Assembly: GCA_963422735.1 (NCBI GenBank)
Contig: OY730476.1
Location: forward strand, 672,001 to 736,000
Direction of reading: 5' to 3'
Length of the DNA stretch: 64,000 bases
Source of the DNA: Candidatus Latescibacterota bacterium
GTDB taxonomy: Bacteria; Latescibacterota; UBA2968; UBA8231
Shown: positions 13,792 through 30,970 of the stretch, piece by piece
Numbering within the stretch: position 1 is the first letter of the stretch
Layout: each line of letters begins with the position of its first letter
Position numbers and translations under genes: made by a program
Notes under the pieces: model-generated
Told to the model about the DNA's origin: nothing
Database searches by the model: none
What the model saw: the letters and a program-made list of their open reading frames with translations, nothing else

Positions 13792-13847
13792 GCGCGGGGC
13801 GGAGCCGATGCGGGTGGTCCCTGCATCGGCTGGTAGCTGCCGCTGAA

Positions 13848-13876
13848 TTGACTATAGGAGGGACGGCGGCTATATT
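13848..13876 (+). promoter_or_regulatory. Sigma70-like promoter TTGACT-N17-TATATT
   Basis: TTGACT 13848-13853 and TATATT 13871-13876 upstream of ATG 13908. Confidence 0.5.
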
Positions 13877-13907
13877 GCGCGGGGTTCAAAAAGACACAGG
13901 AGACTCC

Positions 13908-14672
13908 ATGCCTACTTCAGCGATTGGCGCACAGTTGTTTACAGTGCGCGATTATACCAAAACCCCGGATGATATTCGCCAAACCTTCGCCAAAGTGCGA
14001 TCCCTCGGCTACGAGGCCGTGCAAGCCTCGGCCCTAGGGGCGATCTCGCTGGCCGAACTGGCCGCGATAAGTAAGGCCGAGGGGGTACAGATCGCTGCCA
14101 CGCACACCAGCTACCAGCGCATCTGCGACGATCCGCAGGCCGTCGTCGAGGAGCACCAGATGTGGGGGTGCCGCCACGTGGCCATCGGCGGCTTGCCCCA
14201 AGAATACCGGCACCGCGAGGGTTTTGTTCGCTTCGCGGCCGAGGCTTCGGAGGCCGCCCGTCCGCTCGTTGACGCGGGCCTAACCTTTAGCTACCACAAC
14301 CACAGTTTCGAGTTGGAGCGCTTCGAGGGGCGCACCGGGCTGGATATCCTCCGCGAGGAAAGCGATCCGGCGGTCTTTTCCTTTGAAATAGACACCTATT
14401 GGATCCAACACGGCGGCGGCAACCCGGTCTCGTGGTTAGACAGGTTCCGCGACCGCATGCACATCGTCCATCTAAAAGACCTGAGCATGGACGGCTCTAA
14501 GCAATGCTTTGCCGAAGTAGGGGAAGGGAACTTGGAATGGGGACCTATTCTCGCGGCCTGTAAAAGAGCACAGATCGAATGGTATTTGATCGAGCAAGAC
14601 ACCTGCCCGGGCGACCCCTTTGACAGCTTGGGTCTAAGCCTGCGCAACCTGCGGGCTATGGGCTTGGACTAG
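13908..14672 (+). CDS. Sugar phosphate isomerase/epimerase (xylose-isomerase-like TIM barrel)
   Basis: GAQLFTVRD, YHNHSFE, EIDTYW, HLKD, EVGEG, IEQD; AGGAG Shine-Dalgarno. Confidence 0.88.
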   Translation: MPTSAIGAQLFTVRDYTKTPDDIRQTFAKVRSLGYEAVQASALGAISLAELAAISKAEGVQIAATHTSYQRICDDPQAVVEEHQMWGCRHVAIGGLPQEYRHREGFVRFAAEASEAARPLVDAGLTFSYHNHSFELERFEGRTGLDILREESDPAVFSFEIDTYWIQHGGGNPVSWLDRFRDRMHIVHLKDLSMDGSKQCFAEVGEGNLEWGPILAACKRAQIEWYLIEQDTCPGDPFDSLGLSLRNLRAMGLD

Positions 14673-14682
14673 GAGGAAAATC

Positions 14683-15864
14683 ATGCAAGAAATTTTCGTT
14701 CCTTGGGCCGCTTGGTACGGCAAGGCTCCGTTCAAAATGGAATTTCCCGACCATTGGGAAGTGGCAGTTCATCCCATGCGAGGCGGGCCGGACATCGGCG
14801 ATGGCGGGATTCGCCGGGCACTGCAAGAGGCCATTGGTGCTCCGCCCCTGCGCGAATTCGCCCGCGGCCGGTCTTCAGCGGCCATCTTAGTTGACGACCT
14901 CTCGCGTCCCACGCCGGCTTTTCGGCTCTTGCCCTATATCCTCGAAGAGCTAGCCGCGGCCGGGATTGCAGCCGACGCCGTAAAGATCATCTGCGCGCTG
15001 GCTGCCCACCGCCCGATGACCCGCGACGATTTGGTCAAGAAGGTCGGGTTGGACATCGTCGATACCATGCAGGTGTTCAACCACAATGCCTACGAGAACT
15101 TGGAATTTTTAGGCTACTCCAGCCGGGGAGTGCCAATCTGGGTCAACCGCGATATGACCTCCTGCGAGGTCCGCATCGCTTTGGGGATGATCACGCCGCG
15201 CGGGGGGATGTTCGGCGGCGGGGCCAAATTGCTCATTCCCGGTGCTTGTGGGCAGCAGACGATTATGCTCAACCACCGCCACGTACACGAAAATTTTCGC
15301 GCACACCTATCCGAGGTGGCGAAGATGGCTGGGGTCAGTTATATCGTCAACCCACTGCTCAACGAGAACTTGGAGATCTCGGGCTTGGTCGCTGGGGATA
15401 CAGACGCAGCCTTTGATCGGGGTTGCGAGTTGGGGCGGGAACAGTATGCGACCCAAGTGCCCGACGCCTTTGACATTGGGGTGTTCAACGCTTTCCCCAA
15501 GGATACGGAACTCTGCCAAGCCGGGTTGGCCATGACGCCGTTGGGTGGAACAAAGAAAAATCCCTTCAACGAAAACTCGACCACTGTCATGTGCTCGGCT
15601 AGCCCGGAGGGGCTGGGTTGGCACTCGGTGTTAGGGCCGGGCACTGCGCTGCGGGGAAAGCCCAGCCCGCCGGCCCGGCGCACCATTCTATTTTCGCCTG
15701 GGATCAACAAGTGGGATGCGGCCCTGCTCTTTGGCGAGGGGGTTATTTTTTGCAAAACTTGGGAGGCCGTATTGAGCGAATTGGGAAAATACCACGGGGC
15801 TGGCGTGAAAGTGTCGGTCTTTCCGGCTGGTGCGCTGCAACGGGCAGCCGACGCCGGTTACTAG
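14683..15864 (+). CDS. LarA-family (lactate racemase domain) nickel-pincer racemase/epimerase
   Basis: VDDLSRPTP, AAHRPMT, GYSSRGVPIWVN, GGGAKLLIPG, NH, FPKD. Confidence 0.8.
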   Translation: MQEIFVPWAAWYGKAPFKMEFPDHWEVAVHPMRGGPDIGDGGIRRALQEAIGAPPLREFARGRSSAAILVDDLSRPTPAFRLLPYILEELAAAGIAADAVKIICALAAHRPMTRDDLVKKVGLDIVDTMQVFNHNAYENLEFLGYSSRGVPIWVNRDMTSCEVRIALGMITPRGGMFGGGAKLLIPGACGQQTIMLNHRHVHENFRAHLSEVAKMAGVSYIVNPLLNENLEISGLVAGDTDAAFDRGCELGREQYATQVPDAFDIGVFNAFPKDTELCQAGLAMTPLGGTKKNPFNENSTTVMCSASPEGLGWHSVLGPGTALRGKPSPPARRTILFSPGINKWDAALLFGEGVIFCKTWEAVLSELGKYHGAGVKVSVFPAGALQRAADAGY

Positions 15865-15927
15865 TAGGGGCAACCCTTGTGGTTGCCCCGGTCTATACGA
15901 GGAATCCCAAATTCCAAAGGAGAAAAA

Positions 15928-16704
15928 ATGCCACCGCTAGCGCGTTTTGGTCTAGAGGGCAAAATCGTCATTGTCACTGGGGCTGGCCGGGGGATTGGCC
16001 GGACGATTGCTTTAGAATGCGCCCTGTCGGGAGCGCGCGTCGCCGTTGGCAGCCGCACCACGGCCGAGTTGGAAACGCTGGCTGCGGAGATTGAGACTGC
16101 GGGCGGGATGTGCTTCTACCACCGGCTCGACGTGACGGACGTACGCTCTATCGAGCATTTTATGGCTGCGGTCGTAGCGCACTTTGGGCGGATTGACGTG
16201 CTAGTCAACAACGCCGGCTACAACAAAGTCGGCAAAATCCTCGACTACGACGAAGAGCTCTACGACTTGATCGTCGATGCCAACCTGAAGAATGTGTTTT
16301 TCTGTAGCCAGATCGCCGCGCGGCAAATGATCGCTCAGGGGGAGGGGGGCAATATCGTCAATATCTCGTCCCAAGCAGGCGTGGTCGGCGCGCCGGAGCG
16401 CGGCCCGTACTCGGGTGCCAAGGGGGGCGTCAACAACCTGACGCGGACTATGGCCGCGGAATGGGCCGAGTATCAGATACGGGTCAACGCGGTCGCTCCA
16501 ACCGTGACGCGGTCTCCGCTGGCCGAAACCGCGATGCGGGAAAGTCAGGCCTTTGCCGATGCGGTGAAGACCAAAAACCTGCTGCGCGGTGCCTTGGCTG
16601 AGCCGGAGGAAATGTCGGCACCGGTGATCTTTTTGGCGTCGGATGCCGCAGCCATGATAACCGGCCACACGCTGGTGGTAGATGGGGGATGGACTATCGT
16701 CTAG
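15928..16704 (+). CDS. SDR family NAD(P)-dependent oxidoreductase
   Basis: TGAGRGIG, NNAG, YSGAK, IRVNAVAP, TGHTLVVDGG. Confidence 0.93.
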   Translation: MPPLARFGLEGKIVIVTGAGRGIGRTIALECALSGARVAVGSRTTAELETLAAEIETAGGMCFYHRLDVTDVRSIEHFMAAVVAHFGRIDVLVNNAGYNKVGKILDYDEELYDLIVDANLKNVFFCSQIAARQMIAQGEGGNIVNISSQAGVVGAPERGPYSGAKGGVNNLTRTMAAEWAEYQIRVNAVAPTVTRSPLAETAMRESQAFADAVKTKNLLRGALAEPEEMSAPVIFLASDAAAMITGHTLVVDGGWTIV

Positions 16705-16825: not shown

Positions 16826-17950
16826 CTACATGGGGAGCAGGCGGTCGCGGTATTGCGCTAGGCGGCCGGCGAGCATCGAGTCGAGCGCAACGGCCGAATG
16901 TGCCAACCCTGTGCCAATGCCGCGCTGGGCCACATAGACGAGGAGGCGCACCAGCCCGTTGGCGTCGTCGAGGTGGATGTACTCTGGGGCCAATTGAGTG
17001 CCCGGCCCCGAGTTGTGATAGTTGCCAAGGGGCAGCGCGACTGCGCCTGTGCGATAATCGGCCTGCATCAGCGGGGTGGCTTCGCAAGCACCGCTGTCCA
17101 TCAGCTTGCGTTGGTAGCGGAAAGAGGGCTGTTGGGAGGTCAATTCGTCGGCTAGTGCGGCCAGCCCACCGCTGATGTCCGGGTCGAAAACCCAGAGCCG
17201 GTCGCCCACCCGCAAGATCGGTCCCGCGCCCAGCACCGCCCCCGCCGCTACGCTGGAGCACTCGATATTGATGTAGAGCGCGTGCCGAGGCAAGAGGTTG
17301 GCCTCTAGCGCGGCGAGCATACCGACGAACCCAACCTCTTCGGCGCGCGTGAGCAAGACGCCGACGCGGACGGAGGCTTGGTGGCGGACTAAGGAATCCA
17401 AGACGCACAAAGCTACGGCCGCCCCGGCCAAATCGTCGATCGCCCGCCCACTCAAGCGTCGCCCCCGCACCCTAAAGGCCGGCAAATCCCACATTGCAAA
17501 GGTCCCCGGGCCTTGGAGGCTGTCGGGTGCTGCGGCTACTTCGACTAGGGGATAGTGCGCCCCTTCTTCTTCAACCGTTCGGACGATGGTCCCGGGGATA
17601 CCGCGCTGGGTAGCCGGGCGATTCAGGTCGAATATTCGCACGCCTGTCGCTAAGGCCTGCTCCAACTCGACGCCGCCGAGTATCTCGAACATCGCGCGGC
17701 CTGGCCCTAGTGATGTTCGCCACACTAAGCCAGGGTGGTCGAGGTGGGCAGTCAAGACGAGAAATTCGTCCTCCTGTTGACTCCCGCCGTCGTAGAGCAG
17801 CAAGCAGTTGCCGCAGCGGTCGTAGAGCATTTGGATTAGAGGCCGCTCGGCTGCGAATGAGCGCGCGATGCCAAAGGCAAAATGCTCGTGGAAAGGGGCT
17901 GTGGGCGCGCGGATGAGCGGCTTGGCGAGCTGGAGGAAGTCGAATTCCAT
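16826..17950 (-). CDS. M20/M42-like metallopeptidase/hydrolase
   Basis: TAHLDHPG, GRAIDDLAG, TRAEEVG, GACEAT, LGNYHN zinc-ligand pattern. Confidence 0.8.
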   Translation of the reverse strand: MEFDFLQLAKPLIRAPTAPFHEHFAFGIARSFAAERPLIQMLYDRCGNCLLLYDGGSQQEDEFLVLTAHLDHPGLVWRTSLGPGRAMFEILGGVELEQALATGVRIFDLNRPATQRGIPGTIVRTVEEEGAHYPLVEVAAAPDSLQGPGTFAMWDLPAFRVRGRRLSGRAIDDLAGAAVALCVLDSLVRHQASVRVGVLLTRAEEVGFVGMLAALEANLLPRHALYINIECSSVAAGAVLGAGPILRVGDRLWVFDPDISGGLAALADELTSQQPSFRYQRKLMDSGACEATPLMQADYRTGAVALPLGNYHNSGPGTQLAPEYIHLDDANGLVRLLVYVAQRGIGTGLAHSAVALDSMLAGRLAQYRDRLLPM

Positions 17951-18055
17951 ATCTCAGGAAAAACCCCCAAAACCCCAATGCCGTCAACTCGCATTGTCCC
18001 AATTGGTTAGGCAACTTATTATAACAAACTAGCGCGATACCGCAGGGGGCGCCAC

Positions 18056-20212
18056 TTGCTAAGACGCTTGCCGACTCACTACCTGAACCACCTCGCTGGG
18101 CGAGATCGAGCCCTTCTTTCGCCGCCTGGTACCCAGCAGCTAACCATGCGTGCGTTTTGGGTGGGGTCGTTCCTCAGCTTTTTCCTAGCCGTCGGTGCTC
18201 CGTACGGCAACATGATCATACGCGGTTCCTACATGGCCTTGGACTTCAGTACGCCGGGGGCCATTTTTTTGTTCCTAGTGCTCATCGGGTTGCTCAATGT
18301 CCTGTTCAAGGTCGCCGCTAGCCCACCGGGCGCAGTGGTTTGGGCCCTAGTTTCGTGTGCGCTCTACAGCTTCTACTATGGTTGGGCGACTCCCCTCGAC
18401 CCTTTTGCTCCGGGTTTTTTCTTTGCCACCTTCATCCTCGCCTCATCCCTGCTCAATATGGTATTGGTTTTTTCCGGGCGGAGTTTGGTCCTCAACCGGG
18501 CCGAGCTGATTCTCGTGTACGTCATGCTATTGATCGTCTCGGCTCTGTGCACCATGGGGCTGAGCGAACAAATTCTGCCGATGATCACGGCGGTGTTTTA
18601 CTTTGCCTCGCCGGAAAACAAGTGGCGGGAAGTGCTCTTTCCCCATTTTTCCGAGCGTGAGGTACTCGTCGTCGATGGTAGGGACAGCAAGTCCTTTTAC
18701 GAAGGGTTGGCACCCGGGGAGGCGATTCCCTACGCGGCGTGGGTCGAGCCTTTGTGCTGGTGGGCAATCTTTCTCTTGGCATTATACGTGACCATGGTGT
18801 CGGTCGCGGTTATCGTCCGTCGGCAGTGGATGGAGCGCGAGCGATTGCCCTATCCGATCACGCAGGTGGGGATAGCCATGGTGCGTGGTGAAGAACAGGG
18901 ACTTAAGATCAATACCTTTTTTCGTCAGCCGGTCATGTGGGCCGGTTTTATGTTGCCTATTTTTTTTGGCAGCTTGAAGGCACTGCACCGCTACGACGCG
19001 GCTTTTCCGGTCTTCTCCCTGTCTTCGTGGATTCCCTTGGTGGGCAAGCAGACCTTGCAACTGACCATCAGCTTTGCCATGGTTGGGTTTTCGTACTTCA
19101 TCAATGCCAATATCGCTGCTGGTATCTGGTTGTTCCACCTCTTGGCCAAGTTTGAAAAGGAGCTCTTCGCGCTTGCTGGCGTGACATCCGAGCAGAAGGT
19201 CGTCTTCGGCGTAGCCGACGTTTCTTTGATGGCCTACCAAGGAGTCGGAGCTTTACTGGCCATGGTCGGGGTTGGTTTGTGGGTGGGGAGGGAACATTTT
19301 CGCAATGTGTGTAAAAAAGCCCTCGGATGGGCACCAGAGGTGGAGGATGGAGATGAGATTATGCCCTATCGCTGGTCTTTTTTTGGCGTTGTGGGTGGGG
19401 TCTTGGTCATGTCGTGGTGGCTGTGGATCATGGGGACGCCGCTGTGGGTGGCGTTTGTTTTTGTCCTCTTGGCCCTATTCGTCTTTCTGGGGTTGACGCG
19501 CATTGTCGCCGAAGCCGGCTTAGCGGCCGTGCGCGCCCCGATGACGGCGCCCGACTTGGTGATCCTAGGGCTGGGGACCGATCTAGTAAGCCGGACTGGG
19601 GTGTGGAACTTGTCGTTGGCCTATATGTGGGCTGCGGATGTGCGGGTGTTCGTCATGGCGACCTGCGCCAACGCCCTCAAGCTGATCGAAGAAATGGAGC
19701 CACGGCTGCGACGGCTGGTGTTTTGGGCTATTATTCTCGCGCTCTTCATCGGGGTCCTCGGTTCGTTTTGGATGATTTTCCACATGGCCTATCAGCACGG
19801 AGGGGTAAACCTCAACAGTTGGTTTTTCAAAGGTGCGCCCGAAACCGCGTACAATAGCGCGTTGCGCAACATGGAGCCGGCGGGCGTACATTGGCCGGGG
19901 CTGGGCTTTTTGTCTGGAGGTGCGCTGGCGATGGGGGCGATGATGTGGGCGCGGCAGCGCCTGCCTTGGTGGCCCGTGCATCCCATCGGATTCCCCATTG
20001 GGGCCAACGGGATGCTCAACAACGTGTGGTTTAGCGTATTCTTGGCTTGGTTTATCAAGAAGGCGATCATGCGCTTCGGCGGAGTGGCTTTGTACCGTCG
20101 CAGTCAGGCGTTCTTTCTAGGGCTGATATGCGGGCAGGTTTCGTGTAACGGACTGTGGTTGGTCATAGACTACTTCACCGGTAAAGTGGGGAACGGCCTC
20201 TTTTGGGTATGA
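18056..20212 (+). CDS. DUF6785/DUF6784 polytopic membrane protein (OPT-superfamily-like)
   Basis: RRQWMERERLPYPI, TRIVAEAG, WPVHPIGF, RFGG...YRR...FFLGLI motifs; many TM segments. Alternative start ATG 18146. Confidence 0.75.
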   Translation: MLRRLPTHYLNHLAGRDRALLSPPGTQQLTMRAFWVGSFLSFFLAVGAPYGNMIIRGSYMALDFSTPGAIFLFLVLIGLLNVLFKVAASPPGAVVWALVSCALYSFYYGWATPLDPFAPGFFFATFILASSLLNMVLVFSGRSLVLNRAELILVYVMLLIVSALCTMGLSEQILPMITAVFYFASPENKWREVLFPHFSEREVLVVDGRDSKSFYEGLAPGEAIPYAAWVEPLCWWAIFLLALYVTMVSVAVIVRRQWMERERLPYPITQVGIAMVRGEEQGLKINTFFRQPVMWAGFMLPIFFGSLKALHRYDAAFPVFSLSSWIPLVGKQTLQLTISFAMVGFSYFINANIAAGIWLFHLLAKFEKELFALAGVTSEQKVVFGVADVSLMAYQGVGALLAMVGVGLWVGREHFRNVCKKALGWAPEVEDGDEIMPYRWSFFGVVGGVLVMSWWLWIMGTPLWVAFVFVLLALFVFLGLTRIVAEAGLAAVRAPMTAPDLVILGLGTDLVSRTGVWNLSLAYMWAADVRVFVMATCANALKLIEEMEPRLRRLVFWAIILALFIGVLGSFWMIFHMAYQHGGVNLNSWFFKGAPETAYNSALRNMEPAGVHWPGLGFLSGGALAMGAMMWARQRLPWWPVHPIGFPIGANGMLNNVWFSVFLAWFIKKAIMRFGGVALYRRSQAFFLGLICGQVSCNGLWLVIDYFTGKVGNGLFWV

Positions 20213-23200
20213 AGCACTCGGCTTACTACATCCTCTGCGCCCTCTTGCTGACCGCAGACTGCGGTTGGGCGCGCGAGGACGGAGTGCGAGAAACCGTCGC
20301 TTATCTGTCGTCGCTCGGTTCTCGAGTAAGCGGCTATCCCGGGGCGGCTGCGGCCGCAGATTACGTCGAGCGACGCCTGCGCGAGATCGGGCTTGCAGAG
20401 GTCGTGCGCGAATCCTTTGCGGTCACTGTGCCCATCGATCAAGGGGGCGAGTTACTCCTCATAGAGAGCGGGGAGCGCTATAGCCTATATGGCCTATGGC
20501 CCAACTTAGTCCGCACCCCGACCCTGCCCGAGTACGAGGGCGAGATGATCTACGGTGGGGACGGCGGGTGGGAGGATTATGCGGGCCGCGAACTCGATGG
20601 TCGGGTAGTGCTGATGGAGTTCAATAGCTGGAGCCGCTGGCTGCAGGCCGCCTCGCTGGGTGTGCGCGCTATCGTTTTCATCGAGCCGGAGGAGACTACG
20701 CGTAGTCAAGCCGCGGCCAAGTACTCCACCGCACCGCTGGACATCCCGCGCTTTTGGATCGAAAGAGCGGCCGGGCTGCGGCTAAAAGAGCGGTTGCTCC
20801 AGCATCCAACTTCCGTAGTGCTTAAAGGGCGGATGGACTGGCAACGCGAGACGGCTTGGAATATCTGGGGCCGACTCCCCGGCACCGACCCGGCGCTGGC
20901 CGACGAGACCATTGTCATTGAAAGCTACTACGACGGCATGTCGGTGGTGCCAGCCTTAGCTCCGGCGGCCGAAGCGACCAGCGGCATCGCTGCGTTGCTG
21001 GCGCTGGCCGAGCATCTGGTGCGCCACCCCCCGCGGCGGCCGGTCGCGTTGGTGGCCACGGGCGCGCATTTCCAAGCTCAGCAGGGGATTGTCCACTTCC
21101 TCGAGCGTCATGCTCGCCTCCATCCCTACTATGCCGAGCGGATGGAAGAGCCGCTCAAACCCAAGCTCTTCATCTGCCTCGACCTGACGAGTCAGTCCGA
21201 TGAGTTGGGGATCTGGAACAATACCTTTAGCTATGACCTCAAGCGATTCTTCGTGCCCTTTGGGCGGCGTTTTACGGCCTATGCCGAGGAGGAGGCTGTT
21301 CGGTTGGGCTTAGAGCAGGAGCGGCCGCTGGCCAATGGCATCAGCCCGATTCGCGGCATGGACTGGTCAACCTTCGTGCCAGGCGGGGTCTCGGTCAGTG
21401 GGATGCAGGCTATGACCGCTGGGATTGTCTCGCTGTCTTTTGTGACCGTCAACGATGCTCGCTATATCGTCGATACCCCGCTCGATACGCCGGAGCGGAT
21501 GAATATCGAAAATCTGTCTCGCCAAAGCCGCCTACTCAACGCCATGCTGACGAGGGCGGTAAATGACGAGGCCCTGTTTGCCGATCTCGAAGACTTTGGT
21601 CCGGTACTCAAGGACAAATTGCGCTCCCTGCGCGTTAAGGTCCGCTCGTTTCCGCGCCTCAGCCAAGTGCCGGACCGCCCGATCGGCGATGCCATTGTAG
21701 TAGTTGATCCTTGGTACAAATCCCACAAGGGCGTTCGCTTGGCGCAGCACCACCTCACGGACGGCCAAGGCGTCGCCGATATCGACGGCTTGTGGACGGG
21801 GGCCTATCCGGTGGCGGCTTATCAAGTCAATTCGGCGACTGGAGCGATCGCGTTTGCGCCCGATCTTTCCGAGCGATCGCAGAAGTTCAGCGGCGGGATC
21901 GTGAACGGGTGGATGATCGACAGCAAAATTCGCTGGAATACCAACGAAAAGATCATCGTCGTTTTTCCCTGTATCTCGCGGCCCTTCTACAGCATGATTG
22001 ACCCGCGCTATCTCCGGTCGTTTGGAGAAATCAAGATCGTCAACCGCAGTGGAGTGGCTCCTCGGCAGTTCGGGCTGGCGCGGGGGTTTGGCGAGGGCGA
22101 GGCCGTCGGCGTGGTCTTTGGACCCCAGGACGCCGACGAGGACGACAGCATCAAGATGCTCATCGACAACCGCCTGCTTTTGCTCAACAGCGAGGGAGAC
22201 GAAGACGAGGAGCAGGCGCGGGGGCGGGGCTACGTGCTCAGAGAGGACTCGCTGATCCGCACCGGGATGCTGGCCGTCGAGGACATGTGGCAGCTCAACG
22301 AGGCGCGGCTGCACACCTTGCGCGAGCACGCCATTGAAAACCAGCGCCTAGCCCGGTTGCACCAGCGCGGCAAGGGGCTGATCGAAAAGGCTCGACAAGC
22401 AGAAGAGGCGAGGGATTGGGAGCGCTATGTCGAGCACGTACGGGCCGCGCTAGGGGTGACGTCTCGCGCGTACCCGGAAGTGCTACAGACGCTCAACGAC
22501 GTCATCAGCGGTATGGTGTTTTTTCTCGCCTTAGTCATCCCGACGGCCTTTTTAGGCGAGCGATTGCTGTTTGCGGCAGCCGATATTCGCTGGCAGCTAG
22601 CGGGATTTGGGGGGTTGTTGCTTTTGATCTGGATCGCCATTTCCCAAGTTCACCCGGCCTTTGCCATCGCCCATCCGCTGGTGATCTTGCTGGCCTTTGC
22701 CATCATGGCTATGGCGGCGTTTGTCCTAGCCATGATTAGCACCCGCTTCAACCGCTATATGAAGGCCTATCAGGCCAGAGAAGCCCACGTCCACGAGACG
22801 GACATCAACCGTGCCGGCGCCAGCTACGCGGCCTTTATGCTGGGCATTTCCAATATGCGTCGGCGCAAGCTGCGCACCGGGCTAACCTTGTTGACCTTGG
22901 TCCTGCTCACCTTTACGGTGCTTTCCTTCACCTCGTTCAATACCCAGATCCGCTATATGGCCTTTGCAATGGACCACGAGGGAACCTACGAAGGGGTGCT
23001 GATCCGCGACCGCAATTGGAATGTGTTGAACCGCCCGACGCTCGACTACGCCCGCTCCCACTTTGCCTCTGAAGGAGTGGTCGTGCCGCGCAACTGGTAT
23101 GTCGCCTTTGACGACGAGCAGAAAAAATACATTGAAGTCATCGGCGATACCTCGGTGGTGCGGGCGACCGGAATGCTAGGGCTGGTGCCGGAGGAAGTGC

Positions 23201-24612
23201 ATGTTACCGGCATCGACCAAGCGCTGGTGGGGGGTAGCTTCTTCACGCGCAAGGACGAGGCGGCCTGTCTGATGGCCGAGGGCATGGCCGAGGCGCTGGG
23301 CATCGGGCCGATGGAGTTGGGTGCGGCGACGGTTCGGGTGTTCGGCCGGGACTTGGTGGTGCGGGGCGTATTCGATCCCGATTTCTTTGAGGCAGTCCGC
23401 GACCTCGACGACGAGTCGCTGACGCCAGCGGATTTCCAGATGTCGAGCACCCAAGCTCTGGGGCCGGTGGCCAACGACAACATGAGCATCGCCCTAGATG
23501 AGTCCGCGCTCGACATTCGTCCCTTCATCCACCTAGAGTCCGACAACGTGCTAATCTTGCCCTATGGGACGCTGCGGGAGGCCGGGGGGATGCTGCGCTC
23601 GGTGGCGGTGCGGATGGAGGATGGGGCGCGTGGACAGGAGTTGATTGAAGATTTTCTCCTGCGTCTGGCCATTACCCTCTTTGCCGGCCTGAAGGATCCG
23701 GGCGAAGCCGCCATTAAGGTGTTTTCCTATACCTCGATTGGGTTGACCAATGTCGAGGGTTTGGGGGCCTTGGTGATACCGATGTTTATCGCGGCGCTGA
23801 TTGTGCTCAACGCAATGATGGGGGCCGTTTATGAGCGCTTTCGCGAAATCGGCATTTATTCTTCGGTGGGATTGGCACCGCTGCACATAGCCCTGCTCTT
23901 TGTGGCCGAGGCCTGTGTCTATGCGATCATGGGCGTTACTTTGGGCTATATTCTCGGCCAGAGTTTGGGCAAGGTACTCATCGCGCTGAATCTGCTACAG
24001 GGGATGAGCCTCAATTACTCGTCAATGGCGGCGATTGTCTCGTCGCTTATTGTGATGGCCGTGGTCTTGCTTTCGACTATCTATCCTGCTAGGGTCGCCG
24101 CCCGCACGGCCGTGCCCGATACCGTCCGCCGCTGGACGCCGCCGGTCCCTAACGGGGATCGCTGGGAAATGGAGTTCCCCTTTATGGTCGGCGAGGGGGA
24201 AGTGCGGGGGCTGTGCGGATTCTTGGCCAGTTACTTTAGTGCCTATAGCGAGGAGTCCATCGGCGACTTCTACGCCGAGAAGGTCCAGTTAGTTGAGGAA
24301 GATGGGGAACATGGACCGGAATACGCGGTACAGCTCCTGCTCTGGCTGGCACCATTCGACATGGGAGTGAGCCAGTTCATGCAGCTCGAATTTTTGCCTA
24401 CCTCGGTCAGATCCGTCTATACGGTGGAGATCTACATCCAGCGAATCAGTGGTCAGGACACCTTCTGGCAGCGGGTCAACCACCGCTTTATCAATGGGTT
24501 GCGGAAAGAGTTCCTGCTCTGGCACACCCTTGCCGTAGAGGCCAAAGCCCACCACCGAGGGGTTGCAGAGAAGATGTTGGCCTCAGCCGCAGAAACTGAG
24601 CACAGCGCATGA
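20209..24612 (+). CDS. M28/PA peptidase-like domain fused to FtsX/MacB-like ABC permease
   Basis: Signal peptide; SLGSRVSGYPG, PA-like region, IESYYD, EATSGIAALL; central TM block; SNMRRRKLRTGLTL and VYERFREIGIYSSVG...LFVAEA FtsX motifs. ATGA overlap with the upstream gene. Confidence 0.8.
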   Translation: MKHSAYYILCALLLTADCGWAREDGVRETVAYLSSLGSRVSGYPGAAAAADYVERRLREIGLAEVVRESFAVTVPIDQGGELLLIESGERYSLYGLWPNLVRTPTLPEYEGEMIYGGDGGWEDYAGRELDGRVVLMEFNSWSRWLQAASLGVRAIVFIEPEETTRSQAAAKYSTAPLDIPRFWIERAAGLRLKERLLQHPTSVVLKGRMDWQRETAWNIWGRLPGTDPALADETIVIESYYDGMSVVPALAPAAEATSGIAALLALAEHLVRHPPRRPVALVATGAHFQAQQGIVHFLERHARLHPYYAERMEEPLKPKLFICLDLTSQSDELGIWNNTFSYDLKRFFVPFGRRFTAYAEEEAVRLGLEQERPLANGISPIRGMDWSTFVPGGVSVSGMQAMTAGIVSLSFVTVNDARYIVDTPLDTPERMNIENLSRQSRLLNAMLTRAVNDEALFADLEDFGPVLKDKLRSLRVKVRSFPRLSQVPDRPIGDAIVVVDPWYKSHKGVRLAQHHLTDGQGVADIDGLWTGAYPVAAYQVNSATGAIAFAPDLSERSQKFSGGIVNGWMIDSKIRWNTNEKIIVVFPCISRPFYSMIDPRYLRSFGEIKIVNRSGVAPRQFGLARGFGEGEAVGVVFGPQDADEDDSIKMLIDNRLLLLNSEGDEDEEQARGRGYVLREDSLIRTGMLAVEDMWQLNEARLHTLREHAIENQRLARLHQRGKGLIEKARQAEEARDWERYVEHVRAALGVTSRAYPEVLQTLNDVISGMVFFLALVIPTAFLGERLLFAAADIRWQLAGFGGLLLLIWIAISQVHPAFAIAHPLVILLAFAIMAMAAFVLAMISTRFNRYMKAYQAREAHVHETDINRAGASYAAFMLGISNMRRRKLRTGLTLLTLVLLTFTVLSFTSFNTQIRYMAFAMDHEGTYEGVLIRDRNWNVLNRPTLDYARSHFASEGVVVPRNWYVAFDDEQKKYIEVIGDTSVVRATGMLGLVPEEVHVTGIDQALVGGSFFTRKDEAACLMAEGMAEALGIGPMELGAATVRVFGRDLVVRGVFDPDFFEAVRDLDDESLTPADFQMSSTQALGPVANDNMSIALDESALDIRPFIHLESDNVLILPYGTLREAGGMLRSVAVRMEDGARGQELIEDFLLRLAITLFAGLKDPGEAAIKVFSYTSIGLTNVEGLGALVIPMFIAALIVLNAMMGAVYERFREIGIYSSVGLAPLHIALLFVAEACVYAIMGVTLGYILGQSLGKVLIALNLLQGMSLNYSSMAAIVSSLIVMAVVLLSTIYPARVAARTAVPDTVRRWTPPVPNGDRWEMEFPFMVGEGEVRGLCGFLASYFSAYSEESIGDFYAEKVQLVEEDGEHGPEYAVQLLLWLAPFDMGVSQFMQLEFLPTSVRSVYTVEIYIQRISGQDTFWQRVNHRFINGLRKEFLLWHTLAVEAKAHHRGVAEKMLASAAETEHSA

Positions 24613-27600
24613 ACGACGACAAAAAGAAAAGGCGTCGGGAAGCAAGAAGGCAGCGCCAATGGGGTGAGGTCAATGAGTACCGCGACTTACTCCAAGCGCC
24701 CGACCGCTTTGATGAAGGCTTTACGATCCGCACCATTATAGGCGTGCTCTTTATCTCGCTAATTATGACCCCGGGCGAGATGTTCCTTGGATTGTACACG
24801 GGCGGGGGTGTTGGCGCGGCAGCGCAATGGGTGACGGTGATTCTCTTCTTAGAGGTCTCTAAGCGTTCGTTTACCTCGCTCAAGCGCCAAGAGATCTACC
24901 TGCTAGTGTACGTGGCCTCGGCCTTGGTCGCCCGCGAGGAAGGCGCGTTCCTCGAATTGCTCTGGCGTCAGTATTTCGTGCGCTCGGCCGAAGCTGAGCA
25001 ATTCGGTATCTCGCGCATTTTGCCGTGGTGGTGGGCACCCCAGCCCGATTCGGAGGCCATTGCCGAGCGGACCTTTATCCACCGCGACTGGCTGGCTCCG
25101 ATCCTGCTGTTGGTGATCGGGACGATCATGAGCCGCATCGCTTGGTTTACATCCGGCTACATGCTCTTCCGGCTCACCTCCGACCGCGAGCAATTGCCCT
25201 TTCCGACTGCGCCGATGTCGGCACTGGCGGCCATGGCGCTGGCCGAGGATTCGGGAGCTGAGCAGGAGACGTGGAAGTGGCCGGTGTTCAGCATCGGCTC
25301 GGTCATAGGTGCGTCATTCGGGGCCATCTACGTAGGAGTGCCGGTGGTCACCGAACTCTGGGGGTCCAAAGTGGAGATTCTGCCGATTCCCTTTTGGGAT
25401 TTGACCCCCTATTTCGGCAATATCCTCCATGCTACGCCGCTAGGGGTCGCCGTGCACTTGGGGCCGATATTCTCCGGGTTGCTCATGCCCTTCTGGTCGG
25501 TGGTTGGCTCCTTTTCCGGGGTGATACTGCACACAGCAGTCAGCCCCTTGCTCTACGAATTGGGCTATCTGCCGCGCTGGGAAGTCGGCATGGACACCAT
25601 CCGCACTCAAATAGTCACTGGAATCGATTTTTGGCGCGCCTTTTCCATTGGCATCACCATGGCCGTCACCATCGTCAGCTTCTACCAGCTTTTTTCCACC
25701 GGCCGCGAGAAGCGGGCCGAACTGCGGGAGAAGCTCCAACTCGAGAAGGCCGACCAGCCGATGGTGTGCAAGCACTCGGACTGCCACCGCCCGTCCGAGG
25801 TGAGGGGATACTGCTTAAAACACCTCGGCCGCGGTGATTTCAATCTGTGGATCTGCGCTTCGCTGTTTTGCGTGGCGGCGATCTATCCGATCGTCTTGGC
25901 CAAGACCTTGTTTCCCACCTTGGTCAGCACCGGGCTGTTGGTGATTTTCGTGCTCATCGCCTTTGTCTATGCGCCGATCATGTCCTTTGTCAGTGCCCGG
26001 CTCGACGGCTTGGTCGGCCGGGAGATTTCGATTCCCTATGTCGATGAGGCCATTCGCTTTATGACTGGTTTTCGCGGAGTCGAAATTTGGTTCGTCCCCT
26101 TTCCAGCCCGCAACTTCGGCGGGCATGCCGAGGGGTTTAGGGTCGTCGAGTTGACCGGGATGAAGTTTACTAGTCTGCTCAAGGCCGAGCTCTTTATGTT
26201 GCCCATCGTCTTAGGGGTGAGTCTGATGTACTGGACTTTCCTCTGGCGCTTGGCTCCCATCCCCTCGGAGAGCTACCCGTACGCGCAGCTCATGTGGCCA
26301 CTGAAGGCCTTTGACCAGGCACTCTACTTATCTAGCACCATGTACAGCAAAATGTGGCGCGCCGGAGAGGAGTTGGAAGGGGATATTGTGCCCGCTGGCC
26401 AAGCCGTGTGGAGCCCGAGCAATTTGCAGGACGGCCGTTGGTGGTACTGGCGGGTGAGTACCACGCGAGACTTAGAGGTGCCGGATCCGGCAAAGCGCAC
26501 CTATGGCCCTTGGTCGCAGACCGGATACTTCTACACCAACCTCAGCGGCGGAGGCACACCGCCGCTCCCGGAAGCCGCCGAGAGAATCGCCGCCGAGTTG
26601 TCGGATGGCCCTCAGCTACTTTGGCCTCCCAACGGCATGGCCGTTGCGACGCTGAACCCCAACTTCCGAGCTGCGGTCAATCTGGCTCCGGGCGATTCGG
26701 TTGATTTCTACTTTGAAGTGGATCTCTTGCCCAGCTTTGACGGCGAATTTTTGCAGCGCTCTTCGGACCGGCCCTTGCTCTTTGAGGTCCTGTGGCAGGA
26801 CATGCGCTTTACCGGCAATCGCAAGGACGACGATGGCGATCTCAATATCGCGGCTCTCGTCGAAGGTGTGGAGCCGGAAGGGGTAGGCGATCAACTCGGG
26901 CTGGAGGAAGGCGACCGCTTGCTCGCGGTAAACGGCGTCGAACTTCGCGTCCCCCAATGGGACGCCGCGCGGATCGACCGCTATTTTACTCAGGGCGCAG
27001 ACTCGGTGTTTGCCGCTTGGGAGCGGGATGAGAAAATTGTGCGTCGAGCCGTGGTGCGTAGGCCACAACAGTCCCTGGGACTTGAGTTTGCGGCGGACAC
27101 TTCATTCGTCAAGGGATGGACTGCATACGATGCGGTGCGCGTCGCCGCCGTGGCCGAGGAAGGGCTGGGCCACCGCTTGGGATTGCAAGCCGGTGACTAC
27201 CTTATGACGATCAACGGCCAAAGCATTGAGCAGGATACGTGGCGTAGCGAGGAGGTAAGGGCCGCCTTTGCTGCGGTTGTGGAGGAGACCGCGACTACGG
27301 TGCTAGTCGAGTGGGAGCGGGATGGAGACCGGCTTCAAGGTTTGGTGGCCGCCGCGCCGCCCGTCCAGCCAGGGTTGACCTATCGGGCGGGGGCCATCGA
27401 GGGCCTCGACGAAGAACTGGTCAACAACAAAGACGACGATGGTGATGGCCTGATCGACGAAGATACGGATCATCCCCTCGGCGGTAGGAAGTGGCCCATC
27501 ATCCTCGGCGGCGCGGGATTCGGCTTGACCGCATATTTCGCGCTGGCCTTTATGGGAATGCCGATCTTTCTCATCTGGGGATACGTCCAGAGCGTCAACG

Positions 27601-27800
27601 GCATTCCTCATTTTCTCATTCCGCAAATTATCGGTGCCCTGATCGCCAGACATTACTTCTGGAAGCGATACGGCAAGCAGGAATGGCGGCGCTATGCCAT
27701 GGTTCTGAGCGTGGGCTTCGGGGTTGGCATGTCGCTGATCGGCATGTTTAGTGCCGCTTTGGCGATGATCAAAAAGGCCGTCTCTTCCCTCGCTTACTGA
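24609..27800 (+). CDS. OPT-like peptide transporter with large soluble insert (zinc-finger-like, FN3-like, two PDZ-like domains)
   Basis: FDEGFTIRTIIG, TSDREQLPFPTAP, WRLAPIPSESYPYAQLMW membrane core; GLEEGDRLLAVNG and GLQAGDYLMTINGQ PDZ signatures. ATGA overlap with the upstream gene. Confidence 0.72.
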   Translation: MNDDKKKRRREARRQRQWGEVNEYRDLLQAPDRFDEGFTIRTIIGVLFISLIMTPGEMFLGLYTGGGVGAAAQWVTVILFLEVSKRSFTSLKRQEIYLLVYVASALVAREEGAFLELLWRQYFVRSAEAEQFGISRILPWWWAPQPDSEAIAERTFIHRDWLAPILLLVIGTIMSRIAWFTSGYMLFRLTSDREQLPFPTAPMSALAAMALAEDSGAEQETWKWPVFSIGSVIGASFGAIYVGVPVVTELWGSKVEILPIPFWDLTPYFGNILHATPLGVAVHLGPIFSGLLMPFWSVVGSFSGVILHTAVSPLLYELGYLPRWEVGMDTIRTQIVTGIDFWRAFSIGITMAVTIVSFYQLFSTGREKRAELREKLQLEKADQPMVCKHSDCHRPSEVRGYCLKHLGRGDFNLWICASLFCVAAIYPIVLAKTLFPTLVSTGLLVIFVLIAFVYAPIMSFVSARLDGLVGREISIPYVDEAIRFMTGFRGVEIWFVPFPARNFGGHAEGFRVVELTGMKFTSLLKAELFMLPIVLGVSLMYWTFLWRLAPIPSESYPYAQLMWPLKAFDQALYLSSTMYSKMWRAGEELEGDIVPAGQAVWSPSNLQDGRWWYWRVSTTRDLEVPDPAKRTYGPWSQTGYFYTNLSGGGTPPLPEAAERIAAELSDGPQLLWPPNGMAVATLNPNFRAAVNLAPGDSVDFYFEVDLLPSFDGEFLQRSSDRPLLFEVLWQDMRFTGNRKDDDGDLNIAALVEGVEPEGVGDQLGLEEGDRLLAVNGVELRVPQWDAARIDRYFTQGADSVFAAWERDEKIVRRAVVRRPQQSLGLEFAADTSFVKGWTAYDAVRVAAVAEEGLGHRLGLQAGDYLMTINGQSIEQDTWRSEEVRAAFAAVVEETATTVLVEWERDGDRLQGLVAAAPPVQPGLTYRAGAIEGLDEELVNNKDDDGDGLIDEDTDHPLGGRKWPIILGGAGFGLTAYFALAFMGMPIFLIWGYVQSVNGIPHFLIPQIIGALIARHYFWKRYGKQEWRRYAMVLSVGFGVGMSLIGMFSAALAMIKKAVSSLAY

Positions 27801-28186: not shown

Positions 28187-28579
28187 ATGGCTGATTTTGC
28201 CACCGTGAAGGAGTACGTCCTCGAGTTGGGCCTTGCCATTGTCGAGGAGATTCCCGAAGAGGAAATCATCATTGTCAACGACGAGGAGCGGGGGGTGCAA
28301 AACTTGGTTGTTGATTGCGAGGATACGGTGCTGGTGATCGAGCAGCTTATCCTACAAGTCGCTGCCGGAGCCGCCGAGACGCATAAGCGGATTTTGCAGA
28401 TGAACCGCGACTTGATCTTTGGTGCCTTTGTCCTCAATGAGGAAGGCGATTCGCTGCTCTACCGCAACACGCTGGCGCTGGAGAATTTGGACTTAAACGA
28501 ACTGGAAAGCACGATCAACTCCCTCAGTCTCGGCTTAGTCGAGCATGGGGAGGAATTACTGGGGTTTGCCGCCAAATAG
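28187..28579 (+). CDS. YbjN/CesT-Tir chaperone-fold protein
   Basis: 130-aa acidic protein with LQMNRDLIFGAFVL and NTLALENLDLNELE; directly upstream of pspA; GGAGG Shine-Dalgarno. Confidence 0.75.
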   Translation: MADFATVKEYVLELGLAIVEEIPEEEIIIVNDEERGVQNLVVDCEDTVLVIEQLILQVAAGAAETHKRILQMNRDLIFGAFVLNEEGDSLLYRNTLALENLDLNELESTINSLSLGLVEHGEELLGFAAK

Positions 28580-28590
28580 GAGGATAGGAC

Positions 28591-29301
28591 ATGGCAGGTA
28601 TATTTCAACGCTTGTTTAAAACCGGGCAGGCTGAGGCTCACTCCCTAGTGGATAAGCTCGAAGACCCGATCAAGATGAGCGAGCAAGCGATCCGCGACTT
28701 AAAAAAGGACTTGCAGGAAAGCCTCAAGGCCCTCGCTGAGGTTAAGGCGATCTCGATAAGGCTCAGCCGCGAGTCCGAAGACCACCGGCGGCGCGCCCAA
28801 GACTACGAGCGCAAGGCCATGCTGCTGTTGCAAAAGGCCGAATCCGGCCAGATGGAGGAAGCCGAAGCCGACCGCTTGGCACGCGAATCCCTGACCCGCG
28901 TCGAGGAGGCCCAGAGCCGGCACTCAGAATCCTCCCAACAGGCCCAAACCCAACAGGCGATGGCTAACAAGCTGCAAAGCAATGTCAACGATCTGAAGTC
29001 AAAAATCGCCTCGTACGAAAACGATCTGGTAACCCTCAAAGCGCGCACTAAAACCGCCAACGCCACCCGCAAAATCAACCAGCACTTGGCCAACATCGAT
29101 TCAAAGGGCACCACGGCTCTGCTCGAACGGATGAAGGAAAAGACCGAAGAGCAGGAAGCCCTCGCCGAGGCCTATGGCGATATGGGAGACGCAGCGACGT
29201 CCGTTGACGACGAGATCGACAAGGCCCTCGCCGACAGCAAGGGAGCCAAGGTCGATGATTCGCTGGCCCAGCTCAAGGCCAGAATGGCAGCGAAACAGTA
29301 A
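28591..29301 (+). CDS. pspA: PspA/IM30 family protein
   Basis: GIFQRLFK amphipathic start, KLEDPIKMSEQAIRDL, long coiled coil, LERMKEK, LAQLKARM. Confidence 0.92.
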   Translation: MAGIFQRLFKTGQAEAHSLVDKLEDPIKMSEQAIRDLKKDLQESLKALAEVKAISIRLSRESEDHRRRAQDYERKAMLLLQKAESGQMEEAEADRLARESLTRVEEAQSRHSESSQQAQTQQAMANKLQSNVNDLKSKIASYENDLVTLKARTKTANATRKINQHLANIDSKGTTALLERMKEKTEEQEALAEAYGDMGDAATSVDDEIDKALADSKGAKVDDSLAQLKARMAAKQ

Positions 29302-29311
29302 GGACTGCATC

Positions 29312-30970
29312 TTGGGGGAGAAGGCCCTTAGCCGCCGGCAGTTTTTCTGTGCGCTCGCCGCGGCTGGCGGCTGGGCCGCTTGGAGCGGTTGCTCGTCCGA
29401 TCACCAGCGGCGAGCGATCCCCGGGCGAATCGTCAACGGAGGACCGCCGCGTGGGCACCTGCTACGCGATGTGCATTCCTGGGCAGACTTCGCCGCGGCT
29501 GAGCGCACGTGCGATATCGCCATTGTCGGCGGTGGAATCTCCGGCTTGGCCGCGGCGTGGAAGTTGCGTCGGTCGGGGGTGGAGCGGATTGTCCTCCTCG
29601 ACCTCGAAGGCCAGCTAGGGGGCACCAGTCGCAGTGGCCAATGGGGCGATCGAGTATTTCCTTGGGGTGCTCACTACATCAACATCCCTCCCGCCGAAGC
29701 CGACTGCATCCACGAAATACTGCAAGATATAGGCGTTATTGACGGCTACGACGCGGCGAATAAGCCGCTGGTCGCCGCTGGGGCGATGCTGCGCTGGCCG
29801 CACGGGCGGCTCTTCTATCGGGGGCGCTGGGTCGCCGGGCTGGACCCGTTTGTCGGCGCATCGGGCCGGGAGCGCGAAGCCCTGTTGCGCTTTGAAGACG
29901 AGATGCTGCGCTGGGCCTTGCATCGCGGCCGGGACGGACGCCGGGCCTTTGCCATGCCTTTGCGCTACAGCACGGCCGATGTAAGGGTGCGGCGTTTGGA
30001 CCAAATCAGTATGGCCCAGTACCTCCGCGAAGAGGGATGGCACGACGATCGGCTCCGCTGGCTGGTCGATTACGCCTGCCGCGACGACTACGGCAGCACG
30101 GCAGCCCAAGTCTCGGCTTGGGCCGGGATTCACTACTATGCCTGTAGGTTCTACGACTACCGGATCGAGGAGGCGTATCCAGCCCACACGCTGACGTGGC
30201 CCGAGGGCAATGGGCACCTAGTTGCGGAACTCGCTAATAGGTTGGGGGAAAACGAGATAAAGCGACAATCGCTAGTGGCTCGTCTAGCCGAGGAGCGGTC
30301 GCAGGTGCGGCTGGGGTACATCGACTTGGCCACCGGGGAAAAACGGCAACTGACCGCCCGGGCGGTAGTGTACGCCGGCAAGCTCCACACGGCTCCCTAC
30401 GCGATCGCGGGCCTGCCGGATGCACAGGCCAAGGCTATGGCGGCTATCGAGTATAGCCCTTGGTTGGTGGCGGCGATTTTTCTCAAAGAGCCGCTTGCTG
30501 CTCAGCAGACGACTTGGGACAATGTTTTGTACGACAGCCCGTCGCTGGGCTATGTGGTCGCCGATCACCAGCAGGGCGGGGGAGGCCGCGTATTGATGTA
30601 CTATTGGCCCTTTGTCAACCAGCTCGAGCACGCCCGGCACACCTTACTCGCGCAGGACCATTCATTCTGGGCCGAACAGATCATGGCCGATCTGCGCCGG
30701 GTCCACCCGGAGCTGGACGACCTCGTGGAGCGCGTCGATCTATATCGCTGGGGGCACGGGATGATGCGGCCCAGTCCTGAGTCGCTGTGGGGACCGACGG
30801 CCGGTTGGCGGCAGCAGCCAATGGAGCGGATATTTTTTGCTTCGTGCGATGCGACGGGGCTACCCCTTTGCGAAGAAGCGATATTTTCCGGTATTCTGGC
30901 GGCGGAGCGGGCCATGGATTGCCTCGGCGTGGCGTATCCCTCCTCGCTAATAGGGCTTGAAGATGCCTAG
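29312..30970 (+). CDS. Tat-exported (lipo)flavoprotein, amine oxidase-like
   Basis: SRRQFF twin-arginine motif and WSGC lipobox-like; IVGGGISGLAAA, WGAHY, YACRDDYG, RWGHGM. Start TTG 29312 inferred. Confidence 0.82.
   Translation: MGEKALSRRQFFCALAAAGGWAAWSGCSSDHQRRAIPGRIVNGGPPRGHLLRDVHSWADFAAAERTCDIAIVGGGISGLAAAWKLRRSGVERIVLLDLEGQLGGTSRSGQWGDRVFPWGAHYINIPPAEADCIHEILQDIGVIDGYDAANKPLVAAGAMLRWPHGRLFYRGRWVAGLDPFVGASGREREALLRFEDEMLRWALHRGRDGRRAFAMPLRYSTADVRVRRLDQISMAQYLREEGWHDDRLRWLVDYACRDDYGSTAAQVSAWAGIHYYACRFYDYRIEEAYPAHTLTWPEGNGHLVAELANRLGENEIKRQSLVARLAEERSQVRLGYIDLATGEKRQLTARAVVYAGKLHTAPYAIAGLPDAQAKAMAAIEYSPWLVAAIFLKEPLAAQQTTWDNVLYDSPSLGYVVADHQQGGGGRVLMYYWPFVNQLEHARHTLLAQDHSFWAEQIMADLRRVHPELDDLVERVDLYRWGHGMMRPSPESLWGPTAGWRQQPMERIFFASCDATGLPLCEEAIFSGILAAERAMDCLGVAYPSSLIGLEDA

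Follow-up and report, generated by a model that had tools for sequence, protein, structure and literature searches.

A type VII ABC-like permease encoded with two OPT-related permeases is a candidate receptor module of an envelope machine in Latescibacterota

Three large membrane-protein genes overlap end to start in a 64,000-nucleotide stretch of a Candidatus Latescibacterota bacterium genome (assembly GCA_963422735.1; contig OY730476.1, hereafter C1, positions 672001-736000). This whole stretch is the window, and coordinates without a prefix count from its first letter. Gene 1 (18056-20212) encodes a polytopic permease of the DUF6785/DUF6784 type, gene 2 (20209-24612; BIG) a 1467-residue protein when read from ATG 20209, and gene 3 (24609-27800; P3-like) a polytopic membrane protein of 1063 residues. 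These genes and all of their features given below lie on the forward (+) strand.

The combination of a type VII ABC (ATP-binding cassette) permease with two OPT-fold permeases is widespread and undescribed. We estimate an even chance that a conserved envelope machine has six receptor modules in this genome, the trio among them, in which an ATPase and a small FtsX-type protein (mini-FtsX) act in trans and uptake proceeds through the OPT-fold permeases. The lineages that carry this machine would be the Latescibacterota and a few other uncultured lineages. Searches of the literature on DUF6785/6784, OPT proteins in Latescibacterota, orphan FtsX/MacB permeases and type VII ABC systems with OPT proteins found no description of the combination, in agreement with an earlier note on this DNA, made from the sequence alone, which knew of no characterized function for it.

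A recurrent three-gene module

The start and stop codons overlap as ATGA at both junctions (20209-20212 and 24609-24612), and these junctions and the open reading frame coordinates bear out the earlier note's description of three large, ATGA-overlapping membrane genes. Two of the starts have alternatives. Gene 1 may begin at TTG 18056, giving 718 residues, or at ATG 18146, giving 688, and gene 2 could be read from TTG 20203 as a protein of 1469 residues.

The arrangement recurs in the source genome, which has six gene 2 paralogues and five gene 3 paralogues. A DUF6785 gene adjoins each gene 2 paralogue, with only small genes intervening in locus E, and a P3-like gene lies within a few genes of gene 2 in five of the six loci. 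In the sixth locus gene 2 and the DUF6785 gene are fused into one open reading frame of 2094 residues, and 14 genomes of the genus contain frames of about 2100 residues with a gene 2 match.

The pairing extends well beyond this genome. Among the best 80 of 588 related loci, a set that includes kin and paralogues and is not independent, 60 have a P3-like gene immediately downstream of gene 2, 31 have a DUF6785 gene immediately upstream of it, 11 have a DUF6785 gene fused to it and 2 are uninformative. These counts exclude chance adjacency, and the three genes are one conserved module. The earlier note had suggested such a neighbourhood survey and had staked its idea on the three genes co-occurring in other genomes, as they do.

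A quick unrooted tree of 16 proteins places the gene 2 of the window as sister to the fused paralogue B, with full support in the SH-like approximate likelihood ratio test (SH-aLRT 100). Paralogue C was considered as the ancestral copy and is unsupported in this role; the single-copy genes of other genomes cluster with paralogues D and E. In the source genome only paralogue C is followed by a PqqD-like gene and by a gene that we call Y. The Y product is a conserved soluble protein of 294-330 residues (L139:11235-12119, L138:5361-6332, C1:3357909-3358901) that has no Pfam match at E<=10 and only chance-level matches in a PDB profile search.

Domains and folds of the three proteins

Gene 2 combines a periplasmic PA/M28-like head with an unassigned middle region, seven membrane helices and, at the C terminus, a cytoplasmic domain. 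Pfam sees the FtsX domain alone (E 2.9e-11, residues 1190-1302), and at E<=10 it finds nothing for residues 450-760. An AlphaFold2 (AF2) model of residues 760-1469 (44 sequences, pLDDT 74.9) indicates that the C-terminal half is a MacB/LolC/FtsX-type (type VII) ABC permease module at 22840-24117 (residues 880-1305), composed of an elbow helix, transmembrane helix (TM) 1, a Porter/Sabre-like periplasmic domain and TM2-4. Foldseek matches the model to MacB (5gko, E 8.1e-15) and also to LolCDE, HrtBA and YtrEF, and VIA likewise to MacB, LolCDE and YtrEF structures (Z 15-17.6), with Z 17.6 to 5xu1, and to the MacB periplasmic domain (3ftj, Z 14.2, root-mean-square deviation (rmsd) 3.4, 179 residues aligned). 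A profile built from alignment A1 of the six in-genome paralogues and searched against the PDB gives the same picture for residues 1112-1299, which match YtrF, MacB and LolC. The cytoplasmic loop between TM2 and TM3 carries the motif ER..EIG (E1211, R1212, E1215, I1216, G1223), which is invariant in the 44 sequences; in solved type VII systems this loop is the coupling helix that touches the ATPase.

Type VII ABC systems (MacB, LolCDE, FtsEX, HrtBA, YtrEF, YbbAP-TesA and BceAB) share with gene 2 the four-helix FtsX-type module and the Porter/Sabre-like domain. Gene 2 differs from them in having three additional membrane helices before the module (22483-22737, approximately residues 761-845; the helices at 2-102 of the AF2 model), which are seen by hydropathy and in the model, and a unique cytoplasmic C-terminal domain. 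A further difference is the hydrolase-like head, which gene 2 has fused in cis and without the canonical catalytic residues; YbbAP-TesA is likewise a motor of this kind paired with a hydrolase-fold periplasmic partner (PMC12646458).

The head lies at 20290-21147 (residues 30-315), where the paralogue profile matches the M28 aminopeptidases 2ek8 (1.5e-16) and YwaD (6hc6, 1.1e-13) and the inactive M28 relative Nicalin (7tm3, 1.5e-5). The matches to 2ek8 and 6hc6 show that the peptidase-like part of gene 2 is real, even though Pfam M28, which matches 10 of 14 long family members, does not detect it in gene 2 itself. Aligned to these two structures, gene 2 carries (Y/H)YD (here YYD) in place of HxD, PGAE in place of GAxDD and AHF (as a wider motif, (S/G)(G/A)HF) in place of GAEE. 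HxD, GAxDD and GAEE hold the catalytic and metal-binding residues of M28 enzymes. The canonical zinc ligands and the catalytic Glu-Glu pair are thus replaced, both in gene 2 and in 39 diverse representatives of the family. The replaced site is itself almost invariant among these 39 (D244 in 38, E257 in 29, H289 in 38, D327 in 37 and R420 in 38), which argues that it is non-canonical but under selection. The head therefore appears to hold a conserved binding site or a non-canonical active site and not the remains of a decayed enzyme. The term pseudo-peptidase, which the earlier note had used, is right about the loss of canonical residues but too strong in the decay that it implies.

The last 165 residues of gene 2 (24115-24609, residues 1305-1469) form a conserved alpha/beta domain in the AF2 model and serve as the marker of the family. 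The domain has no Pfam match even at E<=10, and its best VIA matches, to START/Aha1/KA1-like folds, are marginal (Z 8-9). It finds 1579 representatives (clusters at 50% identity) at E<=1e-3, of which 1403 also pass E<=1e-10; most are 1450-1850 residues long. All 14 long members that were scanned have the FtsX domain, and some add Big_5, a fused DUF6785/6784 or, in one member, LysM and NMB0315 domain I. Assignments of the C-terminal domain as a nucleotide-binding or a CARF domain were considered and are unsupported, given the marginal VIA scores and the absence of a PADLOC match to the domain alone.

Gene 1 passes the curated Pfam cut-offs of both domains of its family (PF20581 and PF20580; DUF6785, E 2.3e-103, 346.8 bits against a cut-off of 25; DUF6784, E 9.5e-29, 100 bits against 26.4). 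Its AF2 model (alignment of 45 sequences, pLDDT 90.0, pTM 0.91) has just two Foldseek matches at E<=1e-3, both to barley Yellow Stripe 1 (HvYS1; 7wsr_A and 7wst_A). The match to 7wsr_A has an E of 2.8e-7 and a TM-score (TMt) of 0.58, with the next match at a TM-score of 0.11. In VIA 556 of 600 residues align with HvYS1 (Z 23.9, rmsd 4.0; next Z 5.8), and on this modelled likeness we assign DUF6785/6784 the fold of the OPT/YSL transporters (PF03169; TC 2.A.67; HvYS1 7wsr, 7wst), from which it nevertheless differs in sequence, with identities of 11-13%. At the sequence level, a plain Pfam scan finds no OPT match in gene 1 and a PDB search with the DUF6785 profile gives nothing usable (a single match at E 2.6). 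The ESM Atlas offers weak leads, to 'peptide transporter' and OPT clusters at 0.76-0.78. The Pfam OPT model passes its cut-off on members of both the DUF6785 and the P3-like families, scoring 40 bits on one DUF6785 member in another genome. Hydropathy counts of the membrane helices proved too crude for genes 1 and 3 and were not used.

Gene 3 appears from profile comparisons to be a distant relative of DUF6785 and of OPT that belongs to a separate, P3-like family. The plain Pfam scan shows no OPT match in it at E<=0.01, so the label OPT-like, given in the earlier note, is invisible at that level; a six-frame search does place the OPT model on the C terminus of gene 3 (27486-27761; profile positions 528-622 of 623) at 26.7 bits, above the cut-off of 25.8. 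On P3-like proteins of other genomes (898-919 bits with the family hidden Markov model (HMM)) the OPT model reaches 36-49 bits. Alignment of the gene 3 family with DUF6785 in hhalign gives a probability of 87% and an E of 3.7e-6 over 228 N-terminal columns, and a PDB sequence search with the P3-like profile gives no match. With the HvYS1 superposition of gene 1 and the OPT-model matches to P3-like proteins, the earlier proposal of an FtsX-type subunit with two OPT-related partners gains support.

The one feature of gene 3 that Pfam detects readily is a pair of PDZ domains in a large periplasmic insert, at 26826-27338 (approximately residues 740-910), matched in two stretches (PDZ_6, E 4.5e-15, 55.6 bits against a cut-off of 27; PDZ, E 2.1e-09). 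The insert is clade-specific, being missing from the other 14 sequences of alignment A3. Acidic DDDGDG-type motifs flank it (26720-27580, approximately residues 705-990), and a Cys/His-rich cytoplasmic loop of the pattern C-x4-C ... C-x2-H lies at 25760-25830 (approximately residues 385-405). Both the loop and the motifs are common only to the closest relatives (L058, L104).

The ATPase partner and the role of the machine

Of 75 ABC_tran matches in the genome none lies inside the window, the nearest being at C1:609818, and no ABC ATPase is found within 80 kb of the trio. An ABC ATPase is found within 4 kb of every one of the nine conventional FtsX loci of the genome and within 17 kb of none of the six gene 2 loci, and a Pfam scan of 40 neighbours of the other five gene 2 loci yields no ABC_tran match. 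The earlier note's remark that the operon contains no ABC ATPase is thus true in cis here but does not hold for the family, because a LolD-type ATPase gene, 59-73% identical to the copy in the source genome, is adjacent in 7 of the 80 related loci, which also answers that note's call for a search for a co-occurring LolD/MacB-type ATPase. In L118, L123 and L128 a 214-residue mini-FtsX and the LolD-type ATPase follow P3, directly after a PqqD-like gene in L118 and L128 and about 2 kb further on in L123; in L111, L120, L121 and L127 the same type of ATPase lies upstream.

Small genomes with a single copy of the system display the whole set in one operon. That of G070 encodes, in order, DUF6785/6784 (656 residues), a TPR protein (237), BIG (1552), P3 (662), Y (294), a PqqD-like protein (125), mini-FtsX (228) and the ATPase (245), and that of G048 is the same minus the DUF6785 gene. 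BIG and mini-FtsX are 3.6-4.4 kb apart on the same strand in four of five single-copy genomes. A DUF6785 gene is part of the BIG locus in four single-copy genomes, and in G043 this is the sole copy in the genome. The counterparts in the source genome are a 233-residue mini-FtsX (C1:4648361-4649062), which consists of the FtsX domain only, with no periplasmic domain, and the LolD-type ATPase gene paired with it (C1:4649083-4649853). The source mini-FtsX is 51-53% identical to the copies in the related loci.

The three families also share a phyletic pattern. Among 168 genomes of the phylum, the BIG C-terminal domain is found in 154, at 1-9 copies per genome, DUF6785 in 154 and mini-FtsX in 148, always as one copy; all three are missing from the same 13 genomes, which belong to family f10. 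One genome, 57% complete, has mini-FtsX only. The shared pattern amounts to one evolutionary event, so that it supports the link but carries no statistic.

We propose that gene 2 is the centre of the machine, a type VII permease whose PA/M28-shaped periplasmic head has a remodelled, conserved pocket, and that it associates physically with the OPT/Yellow-Stripe-fold products of genes 1 and 3. The single-copy mini-FtsX would be the second membrane half and the LolD-type ATPase the nucleotide-binding dimer, most likely in trans for all six modules. ATP binding and hydrolysis would then set the periplasmic head in motion through mechanotransmission, the mode of action of MacB, LolCDE and FtsEX, and the head, joined in this clade by the gene 3 PDZ domains, may capture a peptide-like or small organic substrate and hand it to the OPT-fold channels for uptake. 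ATP-driven capture of peptide-like substrates and their hand-over to OPT-fold channels is our best guess as to function. Such a machine would resemble type VII ABC systems in that its ATPase, as seen in the related operons, is of the LolD/MacB type. It would differ from them in that the likely second half lacks a periplasmic domain, the OPT-fold permeases are obligatory partners, and the ATPase, which is not linked to the module, is probably common to several paralogues.

We lean towards uptake on three grounds: OPT/YSL proteins are importers, solo DUF6785 genes stand beside catabolic enzymes, and copy number and ectodomain decorations vary. HvYS1 (PMC9691689) is one of these importers. The source genome has 42 DUF6785 HMM matches, of which 29 are full-length open reading frames (600-720 residues). 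Around the approximately 30 solo paralogues the neighbours are sulfatases, GFO/aldo-keto oxidoreductases, GH116, and S15 and gamma-glutamyl peptidases, and 10 of 86 scanned neighbours are FG-GAP_3 and UnbV_ASPIC proteins.

Several observations weigh against this proposal. The LolD-type ATPase is not found within 9 kb in 73 of the 80 related loci, so the pairing in trans rests on synteny elsewhere and on a single loss or gain in f10. The mini-FtsX/ATPase pair of the source genome is surrounded by glycosyltransferase and epimerase genes and might act in a different process, and seven genomes, all 60-89% complete, have BIG without a mini-FtsX match. In hhalign, 11 bona fide OPT proteins of the phylum align with DUF6785 and with P3-like proteins at probabilities of 14% and 5%. 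The C-terminal domain of gene 2 could stand in place of a nucleotide-binding domain. All characterized type VII ABC systems work in the outward direction or inside the envelope, and not in import (PMC12646458).

The scarcity of ATPase genes in cis would also be explained if the module ran without an ATPase. The FtsX fold would then be rewired, with the C-terminal domain replacing the nucleotide-binding partner, and gene 2 would act passively on OPT-fold permeases driven by protons, as their scaffold, receptor or regulator. The constancy of this family-specific domain across the 1403 representatives fits such a role, as does the name of the best PADLOC match of gene 2, 'CARF_LolE_TM' (194.7 bits), which joins a sensor domain to a module of this kind. 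We nevertheless judge an ATPase-free module unlikely, because the TM2-TM3 loop, presumably the ATPase contact, is invariant, mini-FtsX and ATPase genes share the operon in small genomes, the three families have one presence/absence pattern, and the C-terminal domain on its own has no PADLOC match.

The same PADLOC model bears on a second alternative, a system for anti-phage defence or for the export of ribosomally synthesized and post-translationally modified peptides (RiPPs). No library model matches the FtsX-type module of gene 2 more strongly than this one ('CARF_m8--CARF_LolE_TM', PDLC01991; 5.7e-58), and a PqqD-like gene (115-126 residues) lies between P3 and mini-FtsX in G070, G048, L118 and L128. 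The score comes, however, from the LolE/FtsX-like part (41.1 bits from the periplasmic domain and 67.5 from TM2-4). No CARF domain was seen in gene 2, its C-terminal domain alone is unmatched in PADLOC in three species, and genes 1 and 3 have no match. In the 11 loci with Pfam-scanned neighbours there are no CRISPR, precursor-peptide or maturation genes, and the system is chromosomal and nearly universal in the phylum. We consider defence or RiPP export very improbable, and the defence reading was rejected because the match is confined to the LolE-like part and defence genes are absent from the context.

A more serious competitor is a machine for envelope maintenance or export, either an FtsEX-like regulator of cell-wall hydrolysis or an extractor like LolCDE or YbbAP-TesA that offers a substrate from the membrane or periplasm to the M28-like head, with the OPT-fold proteins recycling products or serving as structural partners. 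Every characterized type VII ABC system works in this way (PMC12646458). One copy of the system is retained in genomes of 1.6-2.6 Mb, one family member carries the LysM and NMB0315 domain I noted above, and in L128 an FtsY-type (SRP54) GTPase gene lies directly upstream. The genome has no FtsE or FtsX at the NCBIfam cut-offs, which is a weak test: the best FtsX_Gneg (TIGR00439) match is the mini-FtsX itself, at 29.1 bits against a cut-off of 255, and the best FtsE (TIGR02673) match reaches 212.7 bits against 264.85, so that both candidates for an FtsEX division complex fall below the equivalog cut-offs. Against a housekeeping role, copy number runs up to nine per genome and the decorations of the ectodomain vary (PDZ, Reg_prop, Big_5), more like a set of substrate-specific receptors, and DUF6785 paralogues adjoin catabolic enzymes. 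On this evidence we regard an envelope-maintenance or export function as rather doubtful.

OPT/YSL transporters are regarded as proton symporters that act by themselves, and we know of no OPT protein that works with an ABC-type partner. Type VII ABC systems (MacB, LolCDE, FtsEX and YbbAP) are a small set, each of which has revealed a new use of mechanotransmission. A type VII engine has no substrate path of its own, and on that ground the trio could represent a hybrid transporter class in which the engine drives or gates import through separate OPT/YSL channels, with one ATPase/mini-FtsX core for up to nine interchangeable receptor modules. Each module would have its own ectodomain, such as an M28-like pocket, PDZ, beta-propeller, Ig or LysM. 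We put this stronger version forward tentatively and think it somewhat unlikely as it stands. A conserved and sometimes covalent type VII/OPT pairing would add a new principle of design to membrane transport and would exemplify, outside the sugar importers, a single ATPase that works for many permease paralogues. The family concerned is large, with approximately 1400 clusters at 50% identity for the marker domain and members in most Latescibacterota genomes (154 of 168), and the result would give DUF6785/6784, with its approximately 30 copies in this genome, a first functional context. Candidate partners can now be named, which makes the question directly testable.

Neighbouring genes and further observations

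A divergent M42-like hydrolase gene lies upstream of the trio on the reverse (-) strand (16826-17950; Pfam Peptidase_M42, E 3e-16). This match agrees with the M20/M42-like hydrolase of the earlier note, but the gene is not a family-wide partner. It stands upstream in only 10 close orthologous loci of the 80 related ones, and we rejected it as a component of the system because it is conserved in close orthologues alone; it is given here as context. Further upstream (13788-16704), genes for a xylose-isomerase-like TIM barrel, a protein with a lactate-racemase N-terminal domain and a short-chain dehydrogenase show synteny with the trio that is limited to close orthologues.

A consensus scan places a sigma-70-like promoter match at 17994-18022 (+ strand, 9 of 12 positions), which is weak evidence, since the scan upstream of gene 1 finds 6 sites where 3.6 +/- 2.0 are expected and is not significant. 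A terminator scan likewise gives nothing significant.

The closest related records to the trio are 89-93% identical. Metatranscriptome run X2 has contigs that match parts of each of the three genes at 90-95% likeness, a hint of expression; at that likeness their source is a relative, and carry-over of DNA is possible. For run X1 the RNA nature is a guess, and run X3 is probably source DNA.

Directly 3' of the trio (28187-29301) are two genes, one CesT_Tir_1/YbjN-like (2.1e-43) and the other of the PspA/IM30 type (8.1e-44), a pair that is kept downstream of the trio in close orthologous loci. At 29174-32483 an amine-oxidase-type flavoprotein gene (598 residues) overlaps the gene for a 508-residue protein with a spermidine-synthase domain; elsewhere (L035), an 843-residue spermine-synthase-domain protein flanks a solo DUF6785 gene.

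Most DUF6785 copies of the source genome are solo and stand beside genes for catabolic or periplasmic enzymes (for example C1:2705328-2706803, 2618038-2619531 and 4477451-4478959). Others are broken, being split or interrupted by in-frame TAG, TAA or TGA stops (C1:3469484-3470851, 2320146-2321172 and 2491934-2492561).

The source genome also has an orphan LolD/MacB-type ATPase gene (C1:64867-65619, 250 residues) between uvrB and an epimerase gene, with no adjoining permease. At 53% identity to the ATPase encoded beside mini-FtsX, its product is another candidate for the partner in trans. Two 240-residue ABC ATPase frames (C1:383576-384298 and 1925905-1926627) give identical BLAST statistics, which suggests an exactly duplicated segment. 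In distant relatives, genes related to cyclic di-GMP, encoding a PilZ protein and GAF-GGDEF cyclases, follow the operon (L118:9909-11125, L128:17100-18314 and L123:18826-20031).

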